The notes beneath the pieces were generated by a model that had not been told where the DNA came from, made no database searches, and saw nothing but the letters and a program-made list of their open reading frames with translations. DNA of 47,677 nt from a virus (lineage: Duplodnaviria > Caudoviricetes). The stretch lies in the IMG/VR virus record IMGVR_UViG_3300020440_000023, positions 1 through 47,677 of that record. One strand, written 5' to 3'. Of this stretch, positions 9,252 through 39,800 are shown piece by piece (position 1 is the stretch's first letter; the number at the start of each line of letters is the position of its first letter). The position numbers and the translations under genes were made by a program.

Positions 9252-10160
9252 ATGGTAGATAATAACTTCCCACCAAACATGGGACAGCAAGGTATTCCTA
9301 TGGGACAACCGCAAGGTAATCCATTAGCGAAGCACCTTAGACAACCAAAGATCTACATCAGATTGCCAAGCAACGGTGAATATTGGCCAGGTAAGTCTTT
9401 GGAAAAGACGGAAAATGGTGAATATCCAGTTTACGCAATGACAGCAAAGGATGAGATTACGTTTAAGACTCCCGATGCATTATTAAATGGACAAGCAACA
9501 GTTGATGTTATTCAGAGTTGTATGCCTAATATCAAAGACGCATGGCAAACACCTTCTATTGATTTAGATGTTATTCTAATTGCAATTAGACGAGCAAGTT
9601 TTGGCGAAAAGATGACAATGACTGCAACAGTGCCAAAAACATCAATTTCCAAAGACTACGAGCTAAGTTTACAAACTTTGTTTGACAACTACATGAGCAA
9701 AGAGTTTGTAGACACTTTTCAAATTGATGGTTTCAAAGTAAAGATACAACCTTTGAACTATAAAATTATTACTGAAGGAATGATCAAAGCATTTGAAGAA
9801 CAGAGAATTTTTGCTGTAATTGATAATGATGATCTTGGCAATGAAGAAAAACTAAAAAGATTTCAAACTAGTTTTGGAAAACTTACTGAGCTTAATGTTC
9901 AAACACTTGTAAGAAGTGTTATAGCTATTCAACCAGACGGTGAAAATGAAGCAGTTGTAAATCCAGCACATCTAAAAGAGTTTTTAGAAAATGTAGATGC
10001 AAAGGTTTTCAATCAAATCAAAGAACACATCGAAAAAGAAAAAGCTAAGTTCAATCAACAGCCTTTAGAAGTAGAAGCAACTGAAGAAGAAATCAAAGCA
10101 GGCGCAGATTCTACTTATCAAATCCCAATTACATTCGATCAAGGTAATTTTTTCGGCTAA
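9252..10160 (+). CDS. gp26-like baseplate hub / tail assembly chaperone
   Basis: Motifs P.IYI.LPS.G, MTAKDE, IDLD.IL.AIR.AS.GE and C-terminal FF resemble T4-type gp26 assembly proteins; AGGAG SD. Confidence 0.7.
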   Translation: MVDNNFPPNMGQQGIPMGQPQGNPLAKHLRQPKIYIRLPSNGEYWPGKSLEKTENGEYPVYAMTAKDEITFKTPDALLNGQATVDVIQSCMPNIKDAWQTPSIDLDVILIAIRRASFGEKMTMTATVPKTSISKDYELSLQTLFDNYMSKEFVDTFQIDGFKVKIQPLNYKIITEGMIKAFEEQRIFAVIDNDDLGNEEKLKRFQTSFGKLTELNVQTLVRSVIAIQPDGENEAVVNPAHLKEFLENVDAKVFNQIKEHIEKEKAKFNQQPLEVEATEEEIKAGADSTYQIPITFDQGNFFG

Positions 10161-10208
10161 GGATCTTAACGTGGAGCCTCGAAAAAATCCAAAACGAGGT
10201 TAAGGTCC
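10148..10208 (+). promoter_or_regulatory. putative -1 programmed ribosomal frameshift signal
   Basis: In-frame heptamer T TTT TTC (10148-10154), 6-nt spacer, stem GGATCTTAAC (10161-10170) / GTTAAGGTCC (10199-10208). Confidence 0.7.
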
Positions 10209-10384
10209 TAGAAGATGAGGTCAAGCAAATCAAAAATGAGATGATAAGAATCTCTTGGTGGATGCGTGGCGGTATTCAAATCAACGACTGTTATGAATTA
10301 GATAGAGATGATAGAGCTATTATCTCAGAACTTATCAAAGAAAATATGGAATCTGCTAAAAAGTCAGGTATGCCTTTTTGGTAA
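10154..10384 (+). CDS. unannotated -1 frame ORF (gp51-like position); probable frameshift extension of the gp26-like protein
   Basis: Stop-free frame RLRILTWSLEKIQNEVKVLEDEVKQIKNEMIRISWWMRGGIQINDCYELDRDDRAIISELIKENMESAKKSGMPFW*; first ATG only at 10241; fills the gap to the next gene. Confidence 0.75.
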   Translation, partial: RLRILTWSLEKIQNEVKVLEDEVKQIKNEMIRISWWMRGGIQINDCYELDRDDRAIISELIKENMESAKKSGMPFW

Positions 10385-11182: not shown

Positions 11183-11368
11183 ATGATCACAAGATATAGA
11201 ATAATTGATAGCTCCGATAACGAAATCGAAGTTCTAAATACCATAGAAGAAGCAGTTCAGTATATTGACACTATGCGTGAAACACAACCGCATTTAGAAC
11301 TTAGATATGAAACTTTCGAAATTAGCCTTGTAAAACCAGGATTTGGAAGAGATCCTGAATTACACTAA
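11183..11368 (+). CDS. hypothetical protein (61 aa)
   Basis: ATG-started ORF in an otherwise empty interval; TAAATA at 11171-11176. Confidence 0.65.
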   Translation: MITRYRIIDSSDNEIEVLNTIEEAVQYIDTMRETQPHLELRYETFEISLVKPGFGRDPELH

Positions 11369-11379
11369 ATAATCATCAG

Positions 11380-11451
11380 ATGTGCGATCCATACGTGTAC
11401 TTTATTATTATAACTGTAGCATTGTTGTGGATTGTTTATAAAAGTAATTAG
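11380..11451 (+). CDS. putative 23-aa membrane peptide MCDPYVYFIIITVALLWIVYKSN
   Basis: Manual translation ATG 11380 to TAG 11451; one hydrophobic stretch; TAAATA at 11366-11371. Confidence 0.45.
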   Translation: MCDPYVYFIIITVALLWIVYKSN

Positions 11452-11887
11452 AAATGAGCTAAAGCTCATTTAGTTTTCGCTAACGCTCAAACTTAGCACT
11501 TCGTTTGTGATAGAAGTAATTACTTGAATTAAAGCAATATCACGTAAGTGATATTGTAATTGCTTCATGTAGATTGTTTCAGTCAGACGGAACCTAACAG
11601 CGGTTCCATCTAATCTTGGTCTTCATGTGAGTTCGTCACAGCCGAGATTCGGAAGTAGGTGTTTGACTATGCTACATGGGCTCTGACCTTTCCCAACCTA
11701 CGTCGACATCACGAAAAAATTTGCAAAACCGCTTTACCGCTTCGCGGATTTTTTCGCTATCCCCCGCTTCGTTCCCTTGCGTGGGGTTTTCGTAGCATAC
11801 AGCCTGTTGGACTCGCTAGTTCTGAACATGTGGCCATGTCCTCAAAGCGGATCGAGCTATCTCGATCAAACAGTGTCCTTATATTGC
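11452..11887. ncRNA. large structured non-coding element (ncRNA or structured DNA site), family not recognised
   Basis: GC-enriched, no credible ORF, at least 9 helices including long-range and crossing pairings (see findings). Confidence 0.6.
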
Positions 11888-12310
11888 CTATAATGTTTTT
11901 AAGTGTTCTTTAAGAATCTTTGAACCGCCTACACGCACATTGATAATTCCATTGTAATAATCATCATTTTCTAGTACTCTACGTTCAAATTGTTCTCTAG
12001 CCTCTAGGTAACTTGCAATGCCTCTGCTTGGACAGTAATGTAATATTTCTCTAGTGAATTTGTCTTCGCCTAGTTGTGCAACATCCGCAATCAATCTGTC
12101 TGAAGATCCCCAATAGTCTCTCCAGTCTGACTCTTTTGTTCCACGTCTTTTGTTTTTTTTGCCTTTAAGCGGTGGCTTAGTTGTCTTGAATTTTGCTAGT
12201 TTCTTGCCTACGTACTTCATGCCATTGACTTTATTTGTTATCAAGTAGACAAATGCTTCTACACCTTCGGGTATTTCATCCACATTTTCACCTTGATAAG
12301 TCCATTGCAT
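11888..12310 (-). CDS. stand-alone GIY-YIG nuclease (T4 endonuclease II / Seg-like catalytic domain)
   Basis: AFVYLITN...KYVGKK (GIY-YIG hairpin), W..YWGSS, F.REIL, conserved Glu in YLEARE, YYN; 140 aa with no appended DNA-binding domain. Confidence 0.85.
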   Translation of the reverse strand: MQWTYQGENVDEIPEGVEAFVYLITNKVNGMKYVGKKLAKFKTTKPPLKGKKNKRRGTKESDWRDYWGSSDRLIADVAQLGEDKFTREILHYCPSRGIASYLEAREQFERRVLENDDYYNGIINVRVGGSKILKEHLKTL

Positions 12311-12328
12311 ATTGGTACTTACCGTTGC

Positions 12329-12529
12329 CTATGTATCTGGGGTCTCTTTCTTGGAATTGTGTTTATAATGTATCTCGTCCATACGTTCTTTTGCTAGTGA
12401 TCTTATTTCTCTCAACCACTTTCTGCTTTCGCGATGCGTTCGCACAGAGTTGCGAGCCTCAAATTTCTCGTTTGCCTTAAAATATGCCATATAAGCCTTG
12501 GTCAATTTATCATGCGTATCGTCATTCAT
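12329..12529 (-). CDS. hypothetical helical protein (66 aa)
   Basis: Overlaps the gp46 stop by 8 nt (translational coupling). Confidence 0.7.
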   Translation of the reverse strand: MNDDTHDKLTKAYMAYFKANEKFEARNSVRTHRESRKWLREIRSLAKERMDEIHYKHNSKKETPDT

Positions 12530-14297
12530 TGTGTATTTCTACATCGTTCTCGTATGATGTAAACCCATTTTCCTTTATAACTTTGAGAACGTGTGTTACT
12601 CTTCCTACTAGTTCGTCTTTGTGTGATATAAGATATACGTTTTTATCTCTCTCACGACCCATTTTCTTGAGAATACCTAGTGAATTCTCAACTCCGCTTG
12701 TATCCATACCACTATCAATTAGCTCATCAATGAATAACAAGTTGATATTTTGATATAAACTCTCCCAAACATCGCGGAATGCAAAGCTCATACCAAGTAT
12801 TAGTCTATTACGCTCACCTCTTGATAGATTATCAAAGTCTAAATCTTGTCCTAATTGTGTAATTTCTACAGCAAGGTCATTTTGGAATACAACTTGATGT
12901 GGTAATCCTAGTTTGTCAAGATAATGCGTAAGTCTGTTGTTTAGATATGCTAAGTTTTGATCAATAATCTTTTTACGTATAAAACTATCTTTGTTAGTAA
13001 GCAGTTTTAACATAAAGTCTTGATGTTCTTTGTAACTTGTAAGATCGTTTACTGTACTCCAATCAATCTCTTGTATCGCACTATTCTTTAGGTCGTCAAT
13101 TTGTTCTTGATATGGATCTACTTCTGTTTTAGTGCGTTCAAGTGCTTCCTGTAGTTGTGCGACATTTTGTTTATGATCATAAACTTCTTTTATAGTTTCA
13201 TAGAATGTAGTAGGCTTACCATTGATATCTCCAATTTCTTCTAATGCTTGTGTAACATCAACTACTTTATCACCTACTTCTTTTTGATATGCTTTTGCAT
13301 CTTCAAGTTCTTTATTTTTTTTGACTGCTAGTTCTTCTTTTTTATCGTCGTGTAGTGCTTGTCCACATGTATGACAAGTACCTTGATCTAAATTTTCTGA
13401 GTCTTTTTGTGCTTTTTCTACAGAATTGTCTGCACGTACTAATGCAGGCTCAAGTGTACTTAATTCCTTTTTAAGAGCCAAAATGGCATTGTTTTGTTCA
13501 GACCAAGTTGACAGTTTTTCGTGCTTATCTAATTCATCTTCTACATCTAAATGTTCTAATTCGTCAATTGAACGTTCTAGTTTTGCTATATCTTCTTTTT
13601 GTTTTGTAGACCAAGCACTTTGTTTTGTTTGCAAACTACGTATTGTTTCGCCAATACGCTCGTTGCTTGTTTCAATAGCATTAATACGGGCTGTTTCGTC
13701 TGTAATTGCTTCTCTTGTTTGTCTAAGTTTGTCTTTAAGCACCTCAGCTTTTTCACTAAGGATAGTAATACCAAGTAACTGCTCAATAATATCCTTTTGA
13801 TCATTTACTCGCATACTCAAGAAAGGTTCTGTATATGTGTTTAGTGCCACAACATGTTTGAACATGTTATGTGACATACCTAATAGATCAATAATATCTT
13901 CTTGAGTCTTGCGTGAATCGCCTTGCGACTCATCTAGCATCTCTTGCTCTTGTCCATCTACATAAAACTTAAGAAGATTAGGTCCTCTACCTCTTTCAAT
14001 CTTATATTCTCTACCATCTTTTTCAAAAGTGAGAGTAACTAACATACCTTTGTTGTTAGTTTTGTTAATAAGGTTGTTGCGTTTGATGTTTGTTAGTGCA
14101 AGTCCGTATAATGCGTAACTTAACGCATTTACAATAGTAGTTTTACCTGTACCATTACGTGATCCGCTGTCGTCACCGCCTTGGTCAAGGTTTTCTCCTA
14201 GTACAAGTGTTAGTTGTTGCTTGTCAAAATCAACTGCTTGGGTTTGATTGCCCACACTCATAAAATTCTTAACAGTTAAACTTTTAATTTTAATCAT
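12522..14297 (-). CDS. gp46: recombination endonuclease ATPase subunit (gp46 / SbcC / Rad50)
   Basis: KNFMSVGN, Walker A NGTGKTT, coiled coil with zinc hook CHTC, signature LSRGE, Walker B LLFIDE, ISH switch. Confidence 0.95.
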   Translation of the reverse strand: MIKIKSLTVKNFMSVGNQTQAVDFDKQQLTLVLGENLDQGGDDSGSRNGTGKTTIVNALSYALYGLALTNIKRNNLINKTNNKGMLVTLTFEKDGREYKIERGRGPNLLKFYVDGQEQEMLDESQGDSRKTQEDIIDLLGMSHNMFKHVVALNTYTEPFLSMRVNDQKDIIEQLLGITILSEKAEVLKDKLRQTREAITDETARINAIETSNERIGETIRSLQTKQSAWSTKQKEDIAKLERSIDELEHLDVEDELDKHEKLSTWSEQNNAILALKKELSTLEPALVRADNSVEKAQKDSENLDQGTCHTCGQALHDDKKEELAVKKNKELEDAKAYQKEVGDKVVDVTQALEEIGDINGKPTTFYETIKEVYDHKQNVAQLQEALERTKTEVDPYQEQIDDLKNSAIQEIDWSTVNDLTSYKEHQDFMLKLLTNKDSFIRKKIIDQNLAYLNNRLTHYLDKLGLPHQVVFQNDLAVEITQLGQDLDFDNLSRGERNRLILGMSFAFRDVWESLYQNINLLFIDELIDSGMDTSGVENSLGILKKMGRERDKNVYLISHKDELVGRVTHVLKVIKENGFTSYENDVEIHNE

Positions 14298-15304
14298 AGT
14301 TCGTCATAGATTCCTAATAGCATTTTCTTATTGTAGTTTTCTGTGTCCAATGCAGTAATTTCCTTTGTAACAATTTCATCTACACTTTCAAATTGTGTAA
14401 TGTCAATGTCGGTGTGTATTTCCTCATCTTTTTGACTTGGAATAAGTGTAATTTCTCTACAATCATAATCATTAATAAATGTTTCTTTGATAAAACTTGC
14501 TTCTTCATAACTAATAGGTAAGTCAAGTGTTACTCTAAGATACATTTTAGATTTAAGTAGTTTGTCTTTGTCATCTAATAGTTGACTTAGTTTCACTGTT
14601 CTATACTTAGGACAGTCTGGCCAATCAATGTATTGTGGTTCTTTGTTATTTTCTTTGTCAAGAATCATCATACCACGTTTGTCATCCCATGCATCTGCAT
14701 AATTGTGTGGAAATGCGTTACCCATATAATGGATTGATCCTTGTACTTGACGTTTGTGAAAGTGTCCAGAGAACACGTATTCTTGATGCTTGAAGTGTTC
14801 TGCTTTTAGTTCTCCATGATCAGGCATTTGTACCATGGCATTCATATAGAAACTAGGCAATTCAAAATGACCAAACATATATCTTGCTTTGATGTTACTA
14901 ATTTTTTTCCACTCATCACCTACTAGCCATGGGACTAGTGCAACATCATCTATTTCTAATATTTCATCTACGTATGTAATACCAGGAATATGTTTACCAA
15001 ACTCGAGGCTGTATAAATCACGTTTGTCTTTGTAATATAAATCGTGGTTACCTGCAAAGAAATAAAACTTTTCAAATGCCGCACCTAGTTTTTCAAGACA
15101 CCTAGTTGTGCTATCAAGTGTTTGCACATTAATAGTATTTCTGTTGTGATGCCAATCACCACAAAAGATACCGGTCTCACAACCGTTTTCTTTAGCTTGT
15201 TCTATAAACCAATCTACAAAGTCTTCACAATCTTGTAGATGTAGCCTACTGTTAGACTTCAACCCAAGGTGAATATCTGTAAATACTGCCGCTTTCTTAA
15301 ACAT
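14294..15304 (-). CDS. gp47: recombination endonuclease nuclease subunit (gp47 / SbcD / Mre11)
   Basis: Metallophosphoesterase motifs DIH, GD, GNHD, GHFE, SGHFH; ATGA overlap with gp46. Confidence 0.95.
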   Translation of the reverse strand: MFKKAAVFTDIHLGLKSNSRLHLQDCEDFVDWFIEQAKENGCETGIFCGDWHHNRNTINVQTLDSTTRCLEKLGAAFEKFYFFAGNHDLYYKDKRDLYSLEFGKHIPGITYVDEILEIDDVALVPWLVGDEWKKISNIKARYMFGHFELPSFYMNAMVQMPDHGELKAEHFKHQEYVFSGHFHKRQVQGSIHYMGNAFPHNYADAWDDKRGMMILDKENNKEPQYIDWPDCPKYRTVKLSQLLDDKDKLLKSKMYLRVTLDLPISYEEASFIKETFINDYDCREITLIPSQKDEEIHTDIDITQFESVDEIVTKEITALDTENYNKKMLLGIYDEL

Positions 15305-15323
15305 TCGTACTCCTGTTTTATAT

Positions 15324-15352
15324 AGTATACTTGAAAAAGTTACCTAAGTCAA
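15324..15352 (-). promoter_or_regulatory. sigma70-type promoter for gp47-gp46
   Basis: TTGACT (15352-15347), 17 nt, TATACT (15329-15324), followed by AGGAG SD. Confidence 0.75.
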
Positions 15353-15359
15353 GTATTTT

Positions 15360-16196
15360 TTACTTCTTTTGGATAGATTCCTTGGCTTCTTGGGTTTTTA
15401 CACGATCCCATTCAGTTGATGCTTGTCTAGTGTAACTAGGATTCATATTGTTCATTTCTAATATGTCATCTCTGATGTTTTGATTGCGTTTTTCTATGTT
15501 AATAACTCTTACAAAAGAATTTGTAACTGCCGCAGTATAATAAGCGAACGGATTATTAGACTTTGACTCGTCGAACTGAAGTCCGATTTGAGCAAGCTGT
15601 AGTATTGCTTGTCCTCTCATTTCGTCATTGTATGTGTATCCACGTACATTTCCTCTTGTTGCATAACGATCGCACAATTTCATCCACATCAATGCAAGTT
15701 TGTTAGTGGCTTTGCCGTGATCTTTATTAAAGAAACCGTTTTCCATACCACCTTCCCAATGGCTTTTTCCTACACAAATAAGCTCATCATTTTCATCAAA
15801 CTTAAAATGTTGAAAAGGAGGAAAGTTTAACTTTACTCTATAATCAGCAGGAGTTTTAGGATTCTTTTTACGGCCTGGTTCTTCTGGTATGTGATCAAAA
15901 GTCATAATTCTAAAGATCAATTCGTCTTTTTGTATCTTTCTGTAGTCAATTTCGAATTCAGCTAATTTTACTCTTTTGCCTTCTGACTTGGCTTGTTCAA
16001 AGTTTTGTTGTTGTAGCCTTTTGGCTTTATTGCGTTTTGCTTCTGCAATAGTCCTAATATTGATTTTATCAATGCTAGGCAAAATGATATCATATTGTCC
16101 ATACTCGTTGTCTGTGTAACTACAAAATGTAGCCTTTGACTTGTGTATTTCTTTTAAAATATCCTTGTTGTTTAGATAATTTACACGTTTATTCAT
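15360..16196 (-). CDS. gp55: late-transcription sigma factor (gp55 family)
   Basis: YLNNKD N-terminus; RGYTYNDEM, FDESKSNNPFAYYT, F.R.I..EKR; upstream of gp47/46 as in T4-like phages. Confidence 0.88.
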   Translation of the reverse strand: MNKRVNYLNNKDILKEIHKSKATFCSYTDNEYGQYDIILPSIDKINIRTIAEAKRNKAKRLQQQNFEQAKSEGKRVKLAEFEIDYRKIQKDELIFRIMTFDHIPEEPGRKKNPKTPADYRVKLNFPPFQHFKFDENDELICVGKSHWEGGMENGFFNKDHGKATNKLALMWMKLCDRYATRGNVRGYTYNDEMRGQAILQLAQIGLQFDESKSNNPFAYYTAAVTNSFVRVINIEKRNQNIRDDILEMNNMNPSYTRQASTEWDRVKTQEAKESIQKK

Positions 16197-27300: not shown

Positions 27301-27890
27301 ATCATCCTGTTGAATACAAACCATTATTCGGAACACATGCACAGGATAATTTACAAGCAACAATCAAGATTGTAAAAAATGGCGGCGAAGTAGTTAATAA
27401 TAATCAATTAAAAACAAATGTTATTAATGCTGTAAACAGATTCTTTTCATTACAAAATTGGGACTTTGGAGAAACATTCCACTTTACTGAACTTGCAACT
27501 TATGTGATGAATCAAGTAGCACCAGATGTTGTAAATATTTTACTTGTACCAAAACAAGCTACACAAGGTTTTGGCAGTTTGTATGAAGTAAAATCAGAAA
27601 ACAACGAAATCTTTATTAATGACGCAACAGTTGACGATGTAGAAATTATAGACTCGGTAACAGCATCAAGAATACAGGCTTCAGGAAATGTTATAACAGC
27701 AACAGGTACAACTAACACAGGTATAAGAAGTCAATCATTAACGACTTCAACTACAGCAAGCACAACGACTAGCACCGGAACAACTACAACTACTACAACA
27801 AGCAGTACTAGTAGTTCAGGTAGTTCAGGCGGTTCAGGTTCAAGCGGCGGAGGCGGAAGCTCCGGCGGCGGTGGAGGCTACGGGTACTAA
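24324..27890 (+). CDS. gp6: baseplate wedge protein gp6 family (extended)
   Basis: DFDTLR, FNDY..S....LID..A, NENFL..A.RR.SV..LA..L.Y.P-type N-terminus, FADG.FG, ES..SIR.NAP..Y.TQNR.IT..DY; follows gp25. Confidence 0.88.
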   Translation: MSSTDRQNRLLLAEDWQKVYQSYRNAEFRSYDFDTLRRAMITYLRNNYPEDFNDYVDTSEYLALIDMIAFLGQNISYRVDLNARENFLELAERRESVLRLARMLSYNPRRNQAANGLLKFENVSTTENITDSNGNNLSGQTISWNDPSNSNWAEQFRRVLNASLPQNGTVGKPIKSKVINGVLTQQYRFNSGGTDVPVFGFTKAVNGLPSQFEIVSTGIDDDINTIKEENPVPGTSLAFLFREDGRGSGSSNTGYFVHFRQGQLKSNLFNVGNPSANQTIAVEAQNINDTDVWLYSLDQNGVADRIWTKVSSLEGNNAIYNSVNKRIRDFYVVQTRADDEVSLVFADGTFGNLPGGSFRVYYRTSANRAMVINPNELTGITFELPYTSRAGITETLTIGVELKTPITNATTSESTASIRTNAPQTYYTQNRMITGEDYNIVPLTSNQEIIKVKSTNRTTSGISRYFDLKDATGKYSSTNLFGSDGILYREPYESKTSFTFATQTDIEGVIENKILPIIQSRAISNFYFGNYAKIIVSDLNATWKQSTKTTNSSTGLLNNISDIPYQVGTFTGGSLKYVEAGALLKFKSPAGFYFIGEGELTSNSKAKGASDYKWVKVISVNGAGTSVDSVTGQGPIVFNEILPSNSILEEVKPKIVKDISDDVRSQIIDQVFAYKTFGLRYDQVGRAWRVIINENLNTIDVFSNGKTGDVTNNQLDSSWIILFQTNGEKYTITNRGLRYIFESDKELSFYFDGQNKIYDSQTGQLVKDKVAIMNFNTKPDSLDAFNNDINWEIVKEFRNTDGYVNSKKVEVSFFDLNEDGSVDDPDIFDNVVDPLTNSSTKYIFLKKVSSDQGFSKFNYDSKGSEIKIVSTEIDIGAYSQYTAGQVFYIIDNDNFKILNNGVLSVTADYKAHVGRSDLKFQYVHSADEGNRIDPSASNIIDIYLLTKKYDTDFRSYIRGETNDLPLPPSTDELFQNYGTKIGLYKSISDEVIYHPVEYKPLFGTHAQDNLQATIKIVKNGGEVVNNNQLKTNVINAVNRFFSLQNWDFGETFHFTELATYVMNQVAPDVVNILLVPKQATQGFGSLYEVKSENNEIFINDATVDDVEIIDSVTASRIQASGNVITATGTTNTGIRSQSLTTSTTASTTTSTGTTTTTTTSSTSSSGSSGGSGSSGGGGSSGGGGGYGY
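27740..27890 (+). repeat. low-complexity Thr/Ser/Gly tail ending GGYGY
   Basis: TTSTTASTTTSTGTTTTTTTSSTSSSGSSGGSGSSGGGGSSGGGGGYGY. Confidence 0.8.
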
Positions 27891-30800
27891 TGGCGCAAGA
27901 TGAAAGTCCAATTCCAGTTCCAATAAATGGAAATCACAAAAGAAAAGCAACTGATCTATTACCAAGATACTTTAGAACTACTGCAAACAAGAAGTTTATA
28001 ACAAGTACATTAGATCAATTAATGCAACCTGGCGTGATCGAAAAGGTTGACGGGTTCATAGGTAGAAAAGATGCTAAGGCATTTAAGGCATCCGATAATT
28101 ATATTCCGGATGTTTCAGCAGATAGAGAAAATTATCAGCTAGAACCTGTAGCTATAATTACAGATAAACTTGGCAATACTACATTTTACAAAGATTATAG
28201 AGACTATGTAAATAGTTCTAAAATTAGAAATACAGACAATGCTGATCATAGTAAGTATAGTTCGCAAGAATACTACGCTTGGGATCCACACATCAATTGG
28301 GACAAGTTTGTTAACTTTAGAGAATATTATTGGCTTCCAGCAGGTCCTGACGAAATACCAGTGTATGGAACTGCAAGAGATATTATTAGCACATTTTCTG
28401 TAAAGCGTCAAGATAATGTTGATAATAACAGTTATATTTTTAGCGAAGAAAATAAAGTTAGTAATCCTACTTTAACATTATATAGAGGACAAACTTACAA
28501 CTTTGATATTGATGCTACTGATATGCCTTTCAGTATTAGAACTAGCACAGATATTGATAATGATACAAATTTATATAATGTAGGTGTAAGTCAACAAAAG
28601 GTTGAGCAAGGTACAATAACTTGGAAAATTGATTTAGAATCTCCTGATACTTTATATTATACAAACGGAAATGATATAGAAGCTTCTGGTTTAATTATTA
28701 TTAAAGATATTATTGATGCTACTGAACTTGACGTAGGTTCAGATATTGTAGGTAAAAAAACTTACACAATGCAAAATGGTTATGATTTAACTAATGGCAT
28801 GAAAGTAAAGTTTTATGGGACAATTACACCTGCTAAGTATGGTGAAGGCAATTGGTATGTAGAAGGTGTTGGCGATTCAATAAAATTAATATCTGAGTCT
28901 GACCTTGTTATTACAGCTGATTATTTAACCGATATTTCTACAGAATTTGATGCACAAGGATTTTCTTCATTACCATTTGATGATGCTACTTCCTATGCTA
29001 CATTAAAAGATTATATTGTCATAAACAGAGCGTCTAAAGACGGAAACCAATGGTCACGTTACAATAAATGGACACATAAAAGTGTAATTGAAAATATAGC
29101 ACAAATTAATAATGTTCCTGTGGTTCTTGATCAAAATTACAGAGCTACAAGACCTATTATTGAGTTTGATGCAGGTTTAAAACTGTATAATTTTGGAACA
29201 CAATCTAAAACATCAGTTGATCTTGTTGATACAGTTACCAAAGATGTATTTTCAGATATTGAAGGACAAGTAGGTTATTTTGTTGACGGTGTAGAATTAG
29301 TTAATGGTATGCGTGTTTTATTTACAGCAGATCCAGACAGTCTTGTTGCAGGAAAAATTTACGAAGTAAATTTTATAAGTCAAAACGGAAATTTACAACT
29401 TGCATTAAAAGAAACTACTGACGCGATTCCACAGACAAACGAAACTGTTTTGGTAAAGTCTGGTACAAACTATAAAGGAAAATTATTTTTTTATGATGGT
29501 ACAACCTGGAAACAAACACAAGATAAAACAAAAGTAAACCAACAACCATTATTTGATTTATATAATGATGCAGGAACTCAGCTATCGACTTTAGAATCAA
29601 GTACATTTAGAGGAAACAAAATTTTTAGTTATAAAGTTGGTACAGGAGTTAACGATACAGAACTAGGATTTCCACTAAGTTATAGAACGATTGAAAACAG
29701 CGGTGATATTGTATTTGATTTCAATTTATTAGCAGACACTTATCAATATGACGAGTTGACAGATGTATTTACTGTAAGTACCGACACAGCGTTACTAAGA
29801 AAATATACAGATAGAACAAGTTTTACAAACGTATCAGGTTGGACAAAAGCTCCTACAAAGTCTACTCAACCTGTCGTAAAACAAGTAACAGTCGGTCAAA
29901 GAACTAATAACTTTATTGTAGATACGTATACTAACAGTGGCGACTTAAATGACCTTATAGTAAAAGTTTATGTAAACAATGAACGTAAGCGTGAAAACAC
30001 ACATTACACAATCAATAGAGTCAACGGGTATGCATACATAACTTTTATTGCAGAACTGAGCACTAACGATAAACTTGTTTTAAAGACAACTTCAAGTGCA
30101 CCTAAGAGATCAGGTTTTTATGAATTTCCTATTAACTTTGAAAAGAATCCACAAAATGAAAATGTTACTACATTTACATTAGGAGAAGTATTAGATCATG
30201 TAGATAGTATAGTCGATAATGTAAATGGTTTTACAGGAGTCTTTCCCGGAGTAAGCAATCTAAGAGATATAGGTGACGCATCTAAGTACGGTTTGAAGTT
30301 TGTACAACATAGTGGACCTATAAATCTTGCATTGTTTAATTTAACAAATAAAGATTATGATGCTATTGAGGCACTTAAATATTCAGGATTTGAATACATC
30401 AAATTTAAAAGAGAATTTCTAAGAATCGCAAATGAACTAGGTTTTGAAGGTACAGACAAAATACATGTAGATAAAGTTTTATTTGAACTAAGTGCAGATA
30501 AAAATAATACAGATCCTTTTTATTTTAGTGATATGTTACCACAAGGTGGCGATACAAAAGTCACACATAACATAGAAGACTCTTCACAAACAATTTTTAG
30601 TTTAACAAGAGGCATTGATTTTACTACACTGTCTGATAAAGCAGTTTTAGTTTACTTAAACCAGAAACAATTAACTATTAACAAAGATTACACAATAAGC
30701 ACTGACGGATTTTTAACATTATTAAATGCACCCACAGCAGGTGATGTTTTAGATGTTTATGAATATATTACCACAGACGGTTGTTGGATTCCGCCAACAC

Positions 30801-33800
30801 CTACAAAGTTAGGTTTATATCCAAAATTTACTCCTGAGATATTTCTAGACGACACTTATCTAGACACTCCTACAGACTCAACAGGACCATGGAAAGTATA
30901 TGGCAGAGACGAACAAACAACATTGTCTTACAAAGGAAAAGTTGGCTGGTTTTATCCGTTATTTACAGATGAACTATCCGCACAACAAGAAGATCTAAGA
31001 AACGGTGGAAGTGGTTCAGCACATACTCATGTATTTGCAGGTTCAAATACTTTATTTTACATGCCTAGCGGCAGTGGCGGAATGAATCATGCAACTAACG
31101 ATACACAAGTAATTGACGAGTATCCAAATGCAAAAGCAATGCTACAAGGACATGACGGAAGTTTATGGAGATGTTTTGGTGACTTTAGAGATAATTTATT
31201 ATTGGATTTTGAAAAAAGAATATACAATAATCTAAAAATGCCATATGATGAAAGTGTATTAGATATCGCTGATTATGTAAACAGCAAAAGCAGGAATACA
31301 AGTTTCACTAGGACACAAATTTCTAAAACAATGATTTCTGAATTCAATAGCTGGTTAGAAACTGTTGGCACTCCTGATTATGTAGCAAACAATTATTATA
31401 GAGTAGGAGATGGATTTACTTTTTATTACGGAGCGGCAAGTGATCCATATGGTAACCCACTTTCCGGATTTTGGAGATCAATTTACAAAGATTTTTATAA
31501 CACTGACAGACCACACAGTCACCCCTGGGAAATTTTAGGATTCAAAGAGAAACCAGATTGGTTTGATGACGAATATGGTCCTGCTCCATATACTAGCAAT
31601 AATTTATTATTATGGGAAGACTTGTCCAAGGGTATAGTTAGGGGTAAGTCAGGATCTAAGGTAACTTATAGAAATAAATTTAAGAACGAAGATATCTTTA
31701 GTTATATTCCAGTTGATGAAAATGGAAATCTTCTTCCTCCTAACCTAACAGGTTATTCTCAAGGTAATATAAGCACAACATATAATTATGAATTTAAATT
31801 TGGTGACGAAGCACCTGTAGAAACTGCATGGAGAAGAAGTTCTCATTATCCATTTAGTTTAATGATATCGTGGGCATTAAATCAACCAGCTCAGTTTTTT
31901 GGACTGGCATTTGACAGAAGCAGAATTACACGTAACGGTGCAGGACAATTAGTTTATAGAGATACAAGTAAACGTATTGAATTAAGTAAACTTAGATTTC
32001 CAAACAGTGCATCCGATTCTCAGAGAGTATATACAGCAGGAATACTAAACTATATCCAAGGATATCTTGCAGGTAATGAAACTTTAAGATTTAAAGAATA
32101 CCAAGATAACATTACAAATTTACAAAACAAACTCGGAGCCAAGTTAGGTGGATTTACACAAAAACAAAAATTTAGATTAATTTTAGATTCAAGAACGCCA
32201 ACTAATGAAGGTAACGTTTTTGTACCTGATGAAAACTATTCAATACATTTGACAAAAAGTATTCCTATTGATGTATTTTCTTACAGCGGAATGATAATTG
32301 AAATCACTCCTTCCGGATATACTGTCAAAGGATACGATAAAGATAATCCTGTTTTCAAGTATTATCCAGTGCGAAGAAAAAATAGTGACCAAACAATAAG
32401 TGTTGGCGGAATAAGTGAAAACTTTTTGACATGGACAGAAGGTAAAACATATGAGGCAGGACAGATAGTTGAACTATCTGATAATTATTATAGAGTAAAA
32501 ATAAGCCATACGTCTGGTGAAGGATTTAATCAAGATAATTTTCAAAAACTTGCAGAACTTCCTGAAGAAGGAGGAGCAACAGCACAAATAGCAACAAACT
32601 TTGATACAACATTAGTAGAAATGCCATATGGAACTTTGTTGAGAGAAAAACAAGATGTTGTAGATTTAATGCTAGGTTACCAACATTACTTACAAAAAGT
32701 TGGATTTAGATTTGATAACTTTAATCAAGACATTGAAGAAATTGAAAATTGGCAATTAAGTGCAAAAGAATTTTTATTTTGGACAACTCAAAATTGGCAA
32801 GATGGAACTATACTTACTGTAAGTCCTAGTGCAAGACAAATAGAATTTTTTAGAAATAATGTTGTTGTAGACGATATATATGACAACTTTTATGATTATA
32901 GTTTATTGAAAGCTGACGGTAAAAGATTACTTGCAGATTTTGCGACTACTGAAAGAGATAATACAAACGAATTTGGTATCTATGTCAAAAACACAGAAGA
33001 AGGTATCTTCCATCTTAAAATTCCTGTAATCCAACATGAACATGCAGTTCTGATTGATAATAAAACTGTATTTGGAGATGTAATTTATAATAGACCTCAA
33101 GGATATAGACAAGAAAGAATTAAAGTTAAAGGATATAGATCAGATGAATGGAACGGTTCATATAACATTCCGGGATTTATTTATGATGATGCAGTGCCAA
33201 CTGAATGGCAATCTTATCAAGATTATCCTATAGGAGCACTTGTAAAATATAAGCAATATTTTTATGTTGCACAAACAAAAGTTGTAGGCACAGAAAATTT
33301 TAACGATAAACTTTTTTTACGCTTAAATGAAAAACCAGAACAGCAATTACTTCCTAACTTTGATTATAAAGCAAAACAATTTGCTGACTTTTATGATTTA
33401 GATAGTGATAATTTTGATGTTGAACAACAAAAACTTGCACAACATCTTACAGGATATCAAAAACGCAAGTATTTAGAAAATATTATTAATGATGATGTAG
33501 CACAATATAAATTTTATCAAGGGGCAATACAAGATAAAGGAACAAAAAATGTTCTTACAAAGTTATTTGATAAACTAGGAAGTGCAACAAAAGATAGTTT
33601 AGAATTTTATGAAGAATGGGCAGTGCGTGTAGGACGTTACGGGGCAACAACAGGTGATGACCAATTTGATATTATATTTGATGAACAAAAATATAGACAA
33701 GAACCACAACAAGTACAACTTGTAGATGCAATAGATCCTACAGACACAAGTCTAATATACAAATTAGATAGAAATAATGTTTATGTCAAATCCGAAAATT

Positions 33801-36800
33801 ATAATCATAAACCTTTACCTGTAAAATATTTTAATGATGACAATAGTTTTACTAAAACAGCCGGCTATGTAAATCCAAGTGATGTATCTTTATCATTATT
33901 AAATTATAATGACTTGCTTACACAATCTAACCTAGCAACAAACAGTTATGTTTGGACTGCTACAGATAAAACACAGCAGACATGGGGAGTATACAAACTT
34001 GTAGCTACAGATTTACGAATCACAGGCTTTACTGCTAGTAACGCAAATAAATTTACAATTACATGTGATAAGGTTGCTAACTTTGATACTGGTGATATTA
34101 TTGGAATTAATGATATAGATGACGCAACTAATGGTTATTATAAAGTAGTAAGTTCATCTTTAAATGTAGTAACATTAGAATCTACTGAAGGTGAAGATAT
34201 AAGTGAACCAGAAGCTGATGCTGAATTTAATGGTTATGTAACTGAGTTCAAAATAGCAAGATTGCCTTCATTGTCATTAGCTAATGACAGCTTAGGTGTA
34301 AGCAACATTAATAATACTATATGGGTTGATGATGACGATACAGGAAAATGGTTAACATTAAGCAATAGGCAAATATTTGAACTTAAACCTAATATTGTAA
34401 ACACAGCCGCAGGTTTATTAGATTCTACTGAAAAAGATTTTGGTACAGCATTTAGTGTAACAAGTAATAATAATCGTATTGCAATTACTGCTCCTAAAGA
34501 TTTAAACGGTAGTGTATACATTTTCCAAAGACCAAGTGATAATAACGAATTTGGTTTCTTGCAACAGATTGATGAGCAATTATTCTTGTTTGACTCTAAC
34601 GGAGGATTTGGACAGAGTGTAGCAGTTAGCCCAGATGGAAAATATCTAGCAATAGGTTCTCCACATGCATCTAATGTAAAAAGTAAATTAAAAGGCGATT
34701 ATAATAATAAGAATGCTTACAGTCAAGGTGATATAGTATTATATTCTGAACAATTATGGAGAGCAGATAGAAATATTGATGCAGATGCTACCCAAGTTTA
34801 TAGTAATCATTCATCTAACGCTCAGTCAAAAGAAGATGAATACGATTCAACTTCACAATCATATCCGACTATTGAATACATTGTTCGTGGAGACTATACT
34901 TTAGGTGCTGATTCAGATACTGACCATATATTAATACGTGCAGAAAAAGAACAGTTTGAAGGAACTAAACCTGGCGACATTCTAACATTAAAATGGAACA
35001 AATATACTACTTCTTATCAAGCAGGTTTGTTACCATTTAACGGAGACAGCACATTAACTGAATCATTAATTAATGGTAATCATACTATTGTAAACAAAGT
35101 ACAACACATAATTCATATTCAGAGTGCGTTAAGTGTACCTGATGCAGGTGCAGAAATAACAACCGATACTTGTAGAGCGACTATTGCATATCGTAGAACA
35201 AACGATGAAAATGAAATGACTGTTTATATTAAAGATGTAAATGGTGCATTCCAAGGTTCAGGAAAAATTTATGCAAATGGAATATTAATTGGTGATTACG
35301 AAGAGTCACTTAACATAACTGACAACTATCATTCAGGTTGGTGGTACGTATCGATAGGAAGCACATTTAGCTCAACAAACTTAACAGAAACAAATGCAAA
35401 TTTAGTTATACAAGACATCACACCAGAGAATGAAATTGTAAACAATCCTTTCTTTAGTAATATTTTAGATACTAAGTTTGTTTCATCAGTAAGTAATCCT
35501 ACAAAAGCATCTGAATTTGGTATACTATCACATACACAAGGTCAAAGTGATATACAAGTTTTAGATAGTAAATGGTGGATAAGAACACCACTGGATCACG
35601 GAAATAGTATTACACCAGGCGACAAAACAAGAGTTTGGATAAACACAATACGTGTGAATGGATTAGTACAAGATCCTAATGCTATTGGACTTACATCTAG
35701 CTATGTTAATGGCACAGAGCATACTGTCGCTGATGTATGGAACGGATACGTAGAGGTAAGATTAACAAATTTTGATCTTAACGGTGATCCTTTCATTCCA
35801 AATGTGGGAGACACACTTACTGATACAGCAACTGGTTCTACCGCAGAAATTGCATTTATTGAAAGAGCATTTGCTACTGCAAAAATTTATTTAAAAAATA
35901 GAAATGGGACCTGGGCTGTAGGTTCTGATTTTGGAGTGAATTCAAACGCAACATTTATTGAAAATGATTCTACAGTAAGAACTATTGGTCCTATTAATTC
36001 AGCTCACATGGAAAATTCTATTTCAGGACCTATTATTGTAGTAGAAAGCGGAACAAACATTCCAGTAGTAAATGGAAACAATTATCTACGTGATTTAGAA
36101 TATTGGATTTATTCTTCTAATAACATTCAAGGTATTACGGATACTGCTAATCCGCCGTCTTCTATTAACTTAGATTGGAAAAGAGTTTATAATATTCCGG
36201 TAATTGCAGAAGGATATGGTACAGGACTTAATGAGCAAGGTACTTTTGCAATTTATGAAATGAAAGGCGTAACGTACCAGCTAATTAGTTATTACACAGT
36301 GCCTAATAGTGCAAATAATAGAAAGTTAGGTACAAAATTAAAATTTGTTCAGCCCGACTCGTCTAGTTATAAACTTTATGTACATGCTGAAGGAGACGGC
36401 ACAGAATCTAACCAAGGAAGAGTATATTTTGTTAATAAGAATGCAACAGATGATTGGGCATTATCTGTACAACAAAATTATAGAGGAGACTTTAGAGTTT
36501 CAGCAACATATTTTGAAGGTGAATTTGTAAGATTTGGTGAAACAATTTACAAAGCAAATACTAATTTAATACCAGGCACTTTCAATGTTAATCAGTGGAC
36601 TGCTCAAACAAGCGGATTAGATCTATTAGGTTATGTTCCTAATGATACTAATTTCTCACTAGTAGAAAGCACACTTGAGCAAGATAATTTAGAGGCATTT
36701 GGATCTGATTTCGATGTTAGCTCTAAAGGTGAAGTCTTAATTGCTAATTCAGTATATACGAGTGTATATGAAATAGAATCCGGCGGCGTTACTCTAGGAC

Positions 36801-39800
36801 TAGATAGTAGTATAGCAAATAGAAAAGTAGTTGTATACAGATTAAACGGAACAAACTACGAATATTCACAAATACTTGAACCTTTTAACCAAACTGAAGA
36901 CTATGGATCAACTATTGCAGTTTCAGAAGATGGTAAAAAAATAGCCGTTGGTGCGCCATTTAATAGTGATATAACAGATAACGGTGGTGCAGTTTATCTT
37001 TATATTCAAAAAGATGGTATGTTTGTGTATTCACAGACACTTCGTCCTATTGATAAATCTCCAAATGTGCAATTTGGAACAAAAATTGACTTTGATGGTA
37101 ATACACTTGCAGTTGCATCACGCGGCGGCAGTATGATAAGTTCAACTACTTTTGATACATACAAATCTATCAAAGAAAATGAACAATATGTTTTAGATCC
37201 TAAATCGGGTGCGAATCCTATTGCAACATCGTTTGACAATAGCAGTACTAAATTCCAAACAGTTGATGTTGGAAGCGGCGTAGTAAGTTTATATGAAACA
37301 GTAAACGATACATTGTTATACAGTCAAAACTTTACATATGATTTAGATACACAAGATTTTGGTAACAGAATGCTTGTGAATAAAAATCATGTATACATTG
37401 GGTTACCAAAGCAACAAGTTCCAAACAGTAGTGTGTTAGACAAAGGTTTAGTTGCAGAATATAGGAAACCACAAGGACTTACATCTTGGTCTATTACAAG
37501 ACAACCTATATTACCAGCAGATACTTCTAAGTTCAAAGGTGTATATCTTTATGATACCAAGACAAATGGTTTACTAACATATTTGGATTATATTGATCCG
37601 ATACAAGGAAAAATTGCCGGACCAGCTGAACAAGAAATTTCATTTAAGACTAGTTATGACCCAGCAAGATATTCCACAACAACAGCAGATTCAAATATTG
37701 TAGCTCATCCTTTAGATTACACAAGTGATGAGTGGGTAGGAAAATTATGGTGGGATATTGATAGTGGTAAATTCATTAATCATCATCAAGGTGATATCAC
37801 AGAAGCAACAGCAGATTTCAACAAATTATTCCCTGGCTCAACGGTTGAAGTTTGGGAATGGGTTGAATCAGAGTTGCTACCTAGTGAATGGGACGATCAA
37901 TCAGATACAGATGCTGGAATAGCCGCAGGTATAAGTGGCACATCTAAATACGGAGATAGTGCATATACAGTACGCAGAAAATACGATACAGCATCACAAA
38001 CATTTACAAATTATTATTACTATTGGGTGCTAGGAAAATCAACATTGCCTCCTGTAGAAAATAGGGAAACAACTTGTGCAGATGTTATAAGATATATTTC
38101 TGATCCTGAAACAACGGGTTATAGATTTGTAGCAATGCTAGGATCTAATAGATTTGCTTTATATAATTGTGCATCTTTCATAGAAGACAGAAGAACTGCA
38201 ATTAGTTTTAATTGGTGGACAATTGATAATCAAGAACAACCAACTCATATACAATATCAACTTGTAAGTGATGGACTTGAAACAAGCGTGCCTAACAGAG
38301 AGATCGAGCAAAAATGGTTTGATAGTTTAGTAGGATTTGACAGTAATGACAGACCGGTTCCAGATATTAATTTACCTGTAAAAAGTCGTTATGGTGCATT
38401 GAATGAACCAAGACAAAGTTGGTTTGTAAATAGAACAGAAGCTCGTAAACAATTTGTTGAAAGAGTAAACAACACTCTAAGCAAAAACTTGGTTGTTGAT
38501 GAATTTGATTTGTCAAAACTTACAGGTTTTGATCCACAGCCTACAACAGCAACAGGAATTTTTGATACTACATCAGACAGTTTTGGTGAAATTGGATTTG
38601 TAAGTGTTGCAAGAGTTAAACCTGCTAACCTTTCATTAGAGGTTGAAAATGGTGTTATTATTAATGTGCTTATTAATGATGCAGGACAAGGATATATAAA
38701 TGTTCCTACATACACAATTACCGACCTAGAAGGATCAGGTGCAGAATTAGAATTTATCTTAGACGCTAACGGTTCAATTTCTAGTGTAAACATTATAAAT
38801 GGTGGTAGAGATTATACTTCTAATCTTGCAATTAATGTAAGAAGTTTCTCAGTGCTTGTAAAGAGTGATGAAAGCATCGGCGGCAAATGGAGTGTTTATC
38901 AATGGACCGGAACAGAATATTTAAGAACCCTTACACAAAGTTATGATATTAATCTTTATTGGCAGTACATAGATTGGTATGCTACAGGATACAATCAATT
39001 TACATTCATAAACCATACTATTAATTCTAGTTATGAAATTTATGCATTAGATGATAAGATAGGTGATATTGTAAAAATTAATAGCGTAGGTACCGGTGGT
39101 TGGTTACTACTTAGAAAAATTGCTAATTTAGAGTCACAAGATTATACTCTAAGCTATGAAACAATTGGTAGAGAAGACGGAACTATAGAATTTAAAAATA
39201 GTTTATATGACACCGACGCAAGTAACACTGCTTTTGATGGCGCAAGTTTTGATAAAATATTTTATGATACAGAACCAAACACTGAATTTAGAAAAATTTT
39301 AGAAATATTAAAGAATGATATTTTCGTTGATAATCTAGCTATTCATTGGAATGAATTATTCTTTGCAGGTATTCGCTACGTATTAAGTGAACAACCTAAT
39401 GTTGACTGGGTATTTAAAACAAGTTTTGTAAAAGCAAAACATAACGTAGGAGAATTACAGCAAAAAGTAACCTTCCAAAATGATAATTTGCCAAGCTATC
39501 AAGACTATGTTAATGAAATGAAACCATACAAAACTAAGATAAGAGAATATCTAAGTTCGTATGAAAAAATTGATCCAGCAAACAATGTTGTGACTGATTT
39601 CGATCTTGCACCATACTACAACGATCAAGAAGGTAAAATTGTTCCGCAAAGTGTACAAATTATAGATAATCAAGTATATGCAGGAGTAGCTGATATACAA
39701 AATTATCCTAGTAAACATTGGTTAGACAATGTAGGCTTTAAGATCACATCTTTTAGTATTGCAGATGCAGGATCAGGATACCAAGTACCGCCAAAAATTG

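Follow-up and report, generated by a model that had tools for sequence, protein, structure and literature searches.

A conserved, covarying structured element behind a GIY-YIG nuclease gene of giant T4-related phages: twin 7-mers and a possible role as an RNA-primed replication origin

The gap behind a GIY-YIG nuclease gene in the window (the whole 47,677-nucleotide stretch of phage DNA analysed here) holds a conserved, covarying and uncatalogued structured element, which is a real subtype of a large phage RNA-like family. The upstream part of the element appears to act as RNA, and its A+T-rich tail as DNA. The chances are about even, in our estimation, that the element works as an RNA-primed replication origin resembling those of ColE1 and T4, while being a member of neither group. 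These results add a large pseudoknotted RNA family, of which Rfam covers only a part. If the origin reading is true, they also provide a single candidate replication-start site for a large clade of giant T4-related phages.

Gene neighbourhood and relatives

The window is a piece of a giant marine T4-related phage, with capsid, portal, baseplate and tail genes, and the contigs related to it reach 347 kb. By gp46, the closest cultured relatives are Phosso, PA5oct, Atu_ph07, GAP32 and 121Q, at 37-48% identity. Profile matches define a minus-strand operon (12329-16196) that encodes the late sigma factor gp55, gp47, gp46 and then a 66-residue protein, and the 140-residue nuclease gene comes after the 66-residue gene at the end of this operon, on the same strand. 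On its far side, the element usually has a convergent gene as its neighbour, the gp26-like baseplate hub gene (9252-10160, plus strand), which is followed by a short gp51-like ORF (10160-10384). A 61-residue gene (11183-11368, plus strand) faces the element; it is kept in many relatives, and neither PHROG nor Pfam profiles match it. Elsewhere in the window, a single ORF of 5022 residues (27890-42958, plus strand) lies amid the baseplate and tail genes.

Among the 80 closest nuclease loci, a related element lies behind the nuclease stop in 62 and is missing in 7, while 11 loci are too short to read. The 62 elements fall into subtypes A (24), B (14), C (15) and D (9), and the window carries subtype A. 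The estimated numbers in IMG/VR, which count stored stretches rather than genomes, are about 420 for the A core, 680 for the B/C loop and 1300 for the B/D core. A covariance model of 41 B elements matches C elements (E down to 1e-16), D elements (1e-11 to 7e-5) and, in subtype A, four elements (2e-4 to 1e-3). It places the window element correctly, at an E of only 0.38, and gives no match in nine element-free loci. A 268-kb contig contains the B loop and the tail tetraloop once. A scan of GTDB yielded 12 matches, of which two are true elements on contigs of metagenome bins, and the other 10 were judged to be chance matches and excluded from all counts. The contigs with true elements (L336, L338) are binned into a Legionellales and a Flavobacterium metagenome genome, and may be phage contigs.

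The 5′ domains mix with the cores across the family, and two of the 20 scanned loci carry the Rfam family Polynucleobacter-1 as their 5′ domain (L388 and L241; 120 and 83 bits). A weak Polynucleobacter-1-like match (35.5 bits, below the cut-off) lies at G016:C1:165725-165864, 110 kb from the element of that genome. In the window, Polynucleobacter-1 (RF01718) has no match. The comparison with Rfam by cmscan that the first-pass annotation had proposed left the element without a known family: no model reaches its gathering score in the window, nothing does so at the element in nine relatives, and relaxing the threshold to E<=10 on the element brings up chance matches only, with no intron or ribozyme among them. 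ARAGORN finds no tRNA or tmRNA. In the literature searched on phage structured RNAs, on GIY-YIG proteins with noncoding RNAs and on jumbo-phage origins, the element is undescribed; the supplements of PMC10690425 (files 1, 2 and 4) and of PMC5737381 may hold pieces of it.

Architecture and strand of the element

The gap begins at the nuclease stop, as the first-pass annotation had stated, and the absence of a credible ORF also holds, as the only overlapping ORF of at least 40 residues has 84 and matches no PHROG or Pfam profile. The region 11440-11890 beats 100 of 100 dinucleotide shuffles in folding on both strands (z -4.7 on plus, -5.1 on minus). The gap had further been described as GC-rich. 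This is correct for 11563-11887 (0.48) and wrong for 11452-11562 (0.315), which is poorer in GC than the whole window (0.356); the element thus consists of two parts and does not form a single GC-rich block.

The helices read by eye in the first-pass annotation are real: eight of the eight two-arm helices checked are present at their positions, seven of them fully paired on the plus strand. The helix 11612-19/11642-49 contains one G·U pair on that strand. The helix 11585-94/11602-11 is correctly placed and not fully paired on plus, where it has a C·A that is a G·U on minus. The claim that G·U pairs favour the plus strand is reversed by the relatives. When distinct strand pairs are counted, G·U exceeds A·C by 16:1 in subtype A and by 52:5 in subtype B, and this excess on one strand indicates that the minus, gene-sense strand folds.

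Read on the minus strand, the predicted structured RNA, a subtype A core with 5′ domain I, extends approximately over 11563-11875. Domain I (11800-11870), including the hairpin 11850-67, is common to many subtype B elements, and other domains substitute for it in relatives. It is followed by the 5′ strand of the pseudoknot PK1 (11792-11799), by P2, a covarying stem that closes a conserved purine-rich loop (11762-11786), and by a hairpin that is free in length and sequence among relatives (11712-11756). The nearly invariant core (11651-11710) has the stem 11696-701/11655-60, a hairpin (11677-95) whose loop is able to pair with 11581-85, and the 3′ strand of PK1 (11668-75). The first copy of the 7-mer ACATGAA, termed R1 (11622-11628), lies in the loop of the stem 11642-49/11612-19. 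The second copy, R2 (11564-11570), is the predicted DNA target of R1, and a terminal hairpin (11586-11610) stands between the two copies. Finally, the A+T-rich tail (11452-11562), which likely acts as DNA and is assigned to neither strand, carries three short hairpins at 11535-56, 11473-92 (with a GTTA loop on minus) and 11452-71.

Both the pseudoknot and the twin 7-mer are absent from the first-pass annotation. Column-wise covariation in MAFFT alignments is blurred, because the hairpins are variable, and the helices were therefore counted at motif anchors, which parsed 67 distinct elements of 128 subtype A loci; the shuffles used in this count ignore relatedness. Counted in this manner, the relatives show covariation of both helices and pseudoknot. 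The long-range pseudoknot of subtype A joins a strand ahead of the A-run to one that lies 120 nt further along, within another stem. Its 12 distinct strand pairs are Watson-Crick at 70 of 72 positions, and its best-register score is 5.8 of 6, as compared to a shuffled maximum of 4.8. P2 covaries in subtypes A and B, and subtype B has a kissing pair and a terminal hairpin of its own, both of which covary. Covariation lends no support to the core helices P4 and P8 or to the loop-to-TGAC pair, which hardly vary. RNAalifold proposes an alternative in which the core pairs with the bases at R2, and R2 may therefore also act in RNA.

The twin 7-mer and the tail

How do the two copies of the 7-mer behave among the relatives? 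R1 follows CTC and is located in a loop, while R2 follows TCT and is located past the last hairpin. The two are about 58 bases apart in the window and 46-70 nt apart across the family, with no helical period. When read at fixed anchors, R1 equals R2 in 91 of 94 distinct subtype A elements from a metagenome sample that overlaps IMG/VR in part; a minority word is found in both copies in 17 of the 94, and the copies differ by one base in the remaining three. The family-wide search gives identical copies in 180 of 194 elements, with 35 words and five loci lacking a repeat, a count that is biased because the search itself seeks repeats, so that the fixed-anchor count is the unbiased one. The 35 words differ on average at 3.7 of 7 positions, and subtype A has nine words. 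Moreover, both copies switch together between otherwise near-identical elements, such as L077 and L080. For the variable, guide-like segment that the first-pass annotation had suggested looking for, R1 is a candidate, which is variable and matches R2 in cis. Such a covarying self-match is the signature of programmable RNA-DNA pairing.

The complement of the word is not enriched in its own element; in the flanks of the element, it scores 5.09 for own words against 5.31 for those of other elements upstream, and 5.02 against 4.87 downstream. The identity of R1 and R2 without an internal partner suggests that the partner is the opposite DNA strand, the nascent strand or a protein. Within the available flanks, there is no third copy of the word at a constant place. 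The base after R1 is G in 169 of 180 elements and R2 is followed by A or G in 161 of 180, consistent with an rG·dT wobble, while the bases before the words, C at R1 and T at R2, would mismatch in the proposed hybrid. Position 6 of the word is A in 33 of the 35 words, and each copy sits in a similar, longer module.

Past R2, the GC content drops from 0.43-0.45 to 0.28-0.36. Hairpins with c-GNA-g loops are present in 108 of 149 tails, as compared to 0-4 in 20 shuffles, and occur on both strands, typically on the antisense strand first and on the sense strand later. GNNA hairpins are found in 116 of 180 tails, and 70 of these 116 are not GNRA. The window tail has four-base-loop versions of these hairpins. 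GNA and GNNA loops are stable in DNA, and we accordingly read the tail hairpins as probable DNA signals. Two terminator-like sites also lie within the tail.

The GIY-YIG nuclease

The gene at 11888-12310 (minus strand) encodes a 140-residue SegE-like GIY-YIG nuclease of PHROG 447, which matches Pfam PF19835 (SegE_GIY-YIG) at an E of 6e-33. Residues Y22, Y33, G35, E103 and N120 are invariant in 31 nuclease sequences. The best structural match of the modelled protein (pLDDT 82) is the I-TevI catalytic domain (1ln0; Z 8.0, rmsd 2.7 over 82 residues), the match to Slx1 is weaker (Z 3.1 vs 8.0), and Foldseek returns nothing at E<=0.001. A basic hairpin of the nuclease is nearly invariant, and it is also kept in the element-less relatives L017, L027, L037 and L045. 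The TAAGTA that had been noticed ahead of the gene at 12321-16 is present as part of a GTAAGTA motif (12316-12322, minus strand) just before the nuclease start, which is kept in 41 of 80 relatives and is possibly a late-type promoter.

PHROG 447 is labelled 'NAD synthetase' in databases, though it is a GIY-YIG nuclease, and the window protein matches 774 cultured-phage records. In the annotated cultured phages inspected, other genes stand close behind the nuclease, and several of the nucleases are adjacent to exonuclease or recA genes. From sequence and gene order, the nuclease is likely the Holliday-junction resolvase of the phage by role, a branch-cutting enzyme that is a neighbour of the element rather than its guided partner. 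This suggests a job, junction resolution, for a widespread phage protein.

Coupling of the element and the nuclease

The first-pass annotation had proposed an undescribed noncoding RNA that partners the nuclease. The conserved, covarying and uncatalogued element supports the former half of this proposal, while an obligate link is contradicted by the relatives. Subtype A is always behind the nuclease, in 74 of 74 and 51 of 51 cases in two samples, and the gene and the element are inverted jointly between gp26 and gp46 in 6 of the 80 close loci (L030, L055, L057, L063, L066 and L074). Linkage across genomes is thus confirmed for subtype A, and it often breaks down in the sister subtypes, where unrelated resolvases can occupy the slot. 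The element is absent behind the nuclease in 7 of 69 readable close relatives, and eight of nine annotated cultured phages have the nuclease family with no such gap, the ninth, Asswx_1, having a longer nuclease protein and a 345-nt gap. Among 71 B/D loci found by the element first, only 41 have it directly behind the nuclease. Nine of the others have a gene between the two, in two the nuclease faces away, nine have the element behind a PD-(D/E)XK resolvase (PHROG 244), and 10, including two chance matches, have it behind other genes. Some nuclease, whatever its type, lies close to the element in 61 of these 71 loci. For 22 of 75 subtype B/C elements, no GIY-YIG gene lies within 1.2 kb. The element also persists behind unrelated and behind divergent genes, in some cases with its own promoter. 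An obligate nuclease-RNA system across the family is not supported; a partnership may be limited to subtype A and its nuclease.

The genome-wide content of nucleases is consistent with substitution. Two genomes that are 99-100% complete (G019 and G020) have the GIY-YIG nuclease with neither the PHROG 244 type nor Endo VII, the element-bearing G016 (85% complete) has the PHROG 244 type only, and a 72%-complete genome that lacks GIY-YIG carries, next to its element, an Endo VII-like gene (E 2e-5, below the cut-off). Nuclease searches of ten nuclease-less contigs, most of them less than 25% complete, were empty. Among the cultured phages, 121Q, GAP32 and Vibrio phage 2.275.O have Endo VII in the nuclease slot, and Phosso and PA5oct have the PD-(D/E)XK type. 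In these few genomes, three enzymes (GIY-YIG, PD-(D/E)XK and Endo VII) thus appear to fill one role.

Cultured phages and expression

In both 121Q and GAP32, the slot holds a conserved gap of about 800 nt, with a promoter-like site, a subtype-B-like loop and a c-GNA-g hairpin. The gap also has a pair of repeats that flank a GC hairpin at a distance of 82-84 nt from each other, and the repeat differs between the two phages in both copies. Plain 7-mer repeats occur 2.3 times per shuffled gap of this size. In six cultured giant phages, the subtype B model has no significant match (best E 0.06), and the element of 121Q and GAP32 is therefore an analogue by position and layout, with its homology unproven. 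These are cultured phages of enteric hosts, and this look-alike opens the element to genetic testing. In PA5oct, no twin repeat was found in the gap, and the four noncoding RNAs detected by RNA-seq are located outside the element slot (PMC7318152). Neither subtype A nor subtype B has a real blastn match among cultured phages or plasmids. Phosso has a 1-kb gap between its PD-(D/E)XK resolvase and an RNase HI gene (L486:8410-9811). In Vibrio phage 2.275.O, a 566-residue SF2 helicase gene occupies the element slot (L490:7756-9456), possibly as a protein substitute.

Fourteen runs recorded as RNA contain part of the element stretch. Seven were examined; they were chosen for containing the stretch, and the parts without contig cover carry no weight. 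Two of them, from different studies, have near-identical contigs that lie inside the element only and reach the tail (11427-11687 and 11448-11678), while other contigs cover the nuclease and gp46 too. Metatranscriptome contigs give no strand, ends or level, and a discrete RNA is therefore not demonstrated by them. A sigma-70-like promoter precedes the element in 7 of 129 relatives in the sense direction and in one in the antisense direction. The window has no sigma-70 site ahead of the element, and its RNA would arise by read-through from the nuclease gene.

A possible replication origin and its alternatives

How could such an element work? The origin reading is based on the concerted change of R1 and R2, the lack of an internal partner, the A+T-rich hairpin tail and the precedents of ColE1 and T4. 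It also draws on the sigma-70-like promoters before the elements of some relatives, and on the RNase HI gene of Phosso and the SF2 helicase gene of Vibrio phage 2.275.O at the slot. We propose that the folded transcript would offer R1 for pairing with the template strand of the DNA at the identical R2, which lies about 58 bases further along. This pairing may start a lasting RNA-DNA hybrid, which would then either prime synthesis or open the tail for the loading of helicase and primase. In its most far-reaching version, which we consider unlikely, origin firing would be RNA-guided: self-targeting RNAs with a freely reprogrammable 7-nt guide would invade their own DNA, start the replication of the giant phage, and pass the opened junction to the adjacent branch-cutting nuclease. 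Against the origin reading, seven bases are short for strand invasion, subtype A never separates from the nuclease, and the C and T before the words mismatch. Base skew in a 268-kb relative tracks gene direction and leaves the element site unmarked, and RNase HI is present in one of five genomes and absent from both near-complete uncultured ones.

Some of the same observations can be explained by proteins. R1 and R2 could be twin iteron-like binding sites for a phage protein, in DNA or RNA, that change together as its specificity drifts; such sites would be compatible with an origin. Covariation of iterons with their initiator has precedents, and the similar module around each copy, the A at position 6 and the missing internal complement suit such sites. 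However, the two copies switch even between near-identical elements, subtype A alone uses nine words, and their 46-70 nt spacing lacks a helical period, which makes this explanation rather unlikely. The invariable position of subtype A behind the nuclease, the joint inversions, the guide-like R1, the nearly invariant basic hairpin and the frequency of some nuclease nearby (61/71) would also be expected if the RNA were a scaffold with a 7-nt guide for the GIY-YIG nuclease, or aimed any junction-cutting nuclease at R2 for recombination-dependent replication. We regard this as improbable: many B/C elements (22/75) have no GIY-YIG gene within 1.2 kb, the 85%-complete element-bearing genome has none at all, and element-less relatives keep the basic hairpin. 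Furthermore, the subtypes track gp46 at least as well as they track the nuclease, with 7 changes on the tree of the former and 10 on that of the latter (50 loci, FastTree, short proteins), and it is unlikely that a single RNA would be recognised by three unrelated folds.

The invariant core of subtype A is larger than a plain scaffold needs, and its helix order resembles that of the P3-P7 core of group I introns. The element might thus be a ribozyme with a group I-like core, or a template RNA whose short product jumps from R1 to R2. A group I intron was rejected, with no Rfam core match, no interrupted gene and no fixed terminal G. The ribozyme or template reading is very doubtful, as these points and the lack of any Rfam match at E<=10 count against it, the subtype B pseudoknot is differently placed, and five incomplete contigs of 169-268 kb (46-75% complete) have no RVT_1 reverse transcriptase in a search that detected its controls. 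Comparative methods are unable to tell single-stranded DNA from RNA (PMC5737381). The whole element might be single-stranded DNA (a single-strand origin or a packaging or recombination signal) or a 3′ regulatory RNA of the gp55-gp47-gp46 operon, and the DNA-type loops and the two terminator-like sites of the tail speak for this pair of readings. Both are very unlikely, because the upstream helices and pseudoknots use G·U freely on one strand only, and the element persists behind unrelated or divergent genes, some with their own promoter. The RNA-primed origin remains our preferred reading.

Comparison with known systems

The only catalogued family that overlaps with the element is Polynucleobacter-1 (RF01718), whose 141-nt model does not reach the shared core, the twin words or the tail, and whose table row and alignment state no function (PMC2864571). 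A likeness to ARRPOF (RF02933) was dropped, as its model matches no element; no positive-control genome exceeded the cut-off either, and five small plasmid records contained no ARRPOF. The two were compared by model. Like the element, ARRPOF has about 250 nt and several pseudoknots, and it is tied to plasmid replication without a Rep gene (PMC5737381, PMC12990946). A Fusobacterium plasmid without an annotated rep gene carries a skipping-rope RNA (L344:4397-4467).

The priming hybrid of ColE1 arises where a stretch of rG in the RNA anneals to a stretch of dC in the template (PMC4412123), and the DNA is opened beyond the hybrid for helicase loading (PMC5043065). RNA II and the predicted transcript of the element are both structured and noncoding, with an upstream stretch that matches a downstream stretch of the non-template strand, a likeness of sequence pattern. 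In contrast, the matching stretch of the element is a free 7-mer with 35 words rather than a G run, the element resides in giant lytic phages with no antisense regulator seen, and priming is only inferred. As for homology to RNA II or plasmid replicons, subtype A has no plasmid match, and subtype B has only short ones at E>=1. The T4 origins combine a promoter and an unwinding element, and transcription enters an A+T-rich stretch (PMC4412123). The phages that carry the element share T4-like replication genes and the A+T-rich stretch with oriF and oriG, while the element itself, unlike these origins, is a 300-nt pseudoknotted fold with twin words.

The nuclease resembles the I-TevI/Seg-type domain in its fold and its SegE_GIY-YIG match. 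It differs in that it has no separate DNA-binding domain and alternates with Holliday-junction resolvases, rather than being an optional homing gene. Measured by the defining traits of the OMEGA systems (IscB-omegaRNA/HEARO and TnpB-reRNA), the locus is similar in its compact nuclease gene beside a structured RNA, and possibly in its short, variable segment that matches DNA. Unlike in those systems, the link between gene and RNA is not obligate, the locus occurs as a single copy in which no transposon ends were seen, and the DNA that the variable word matches is that of the element itself.
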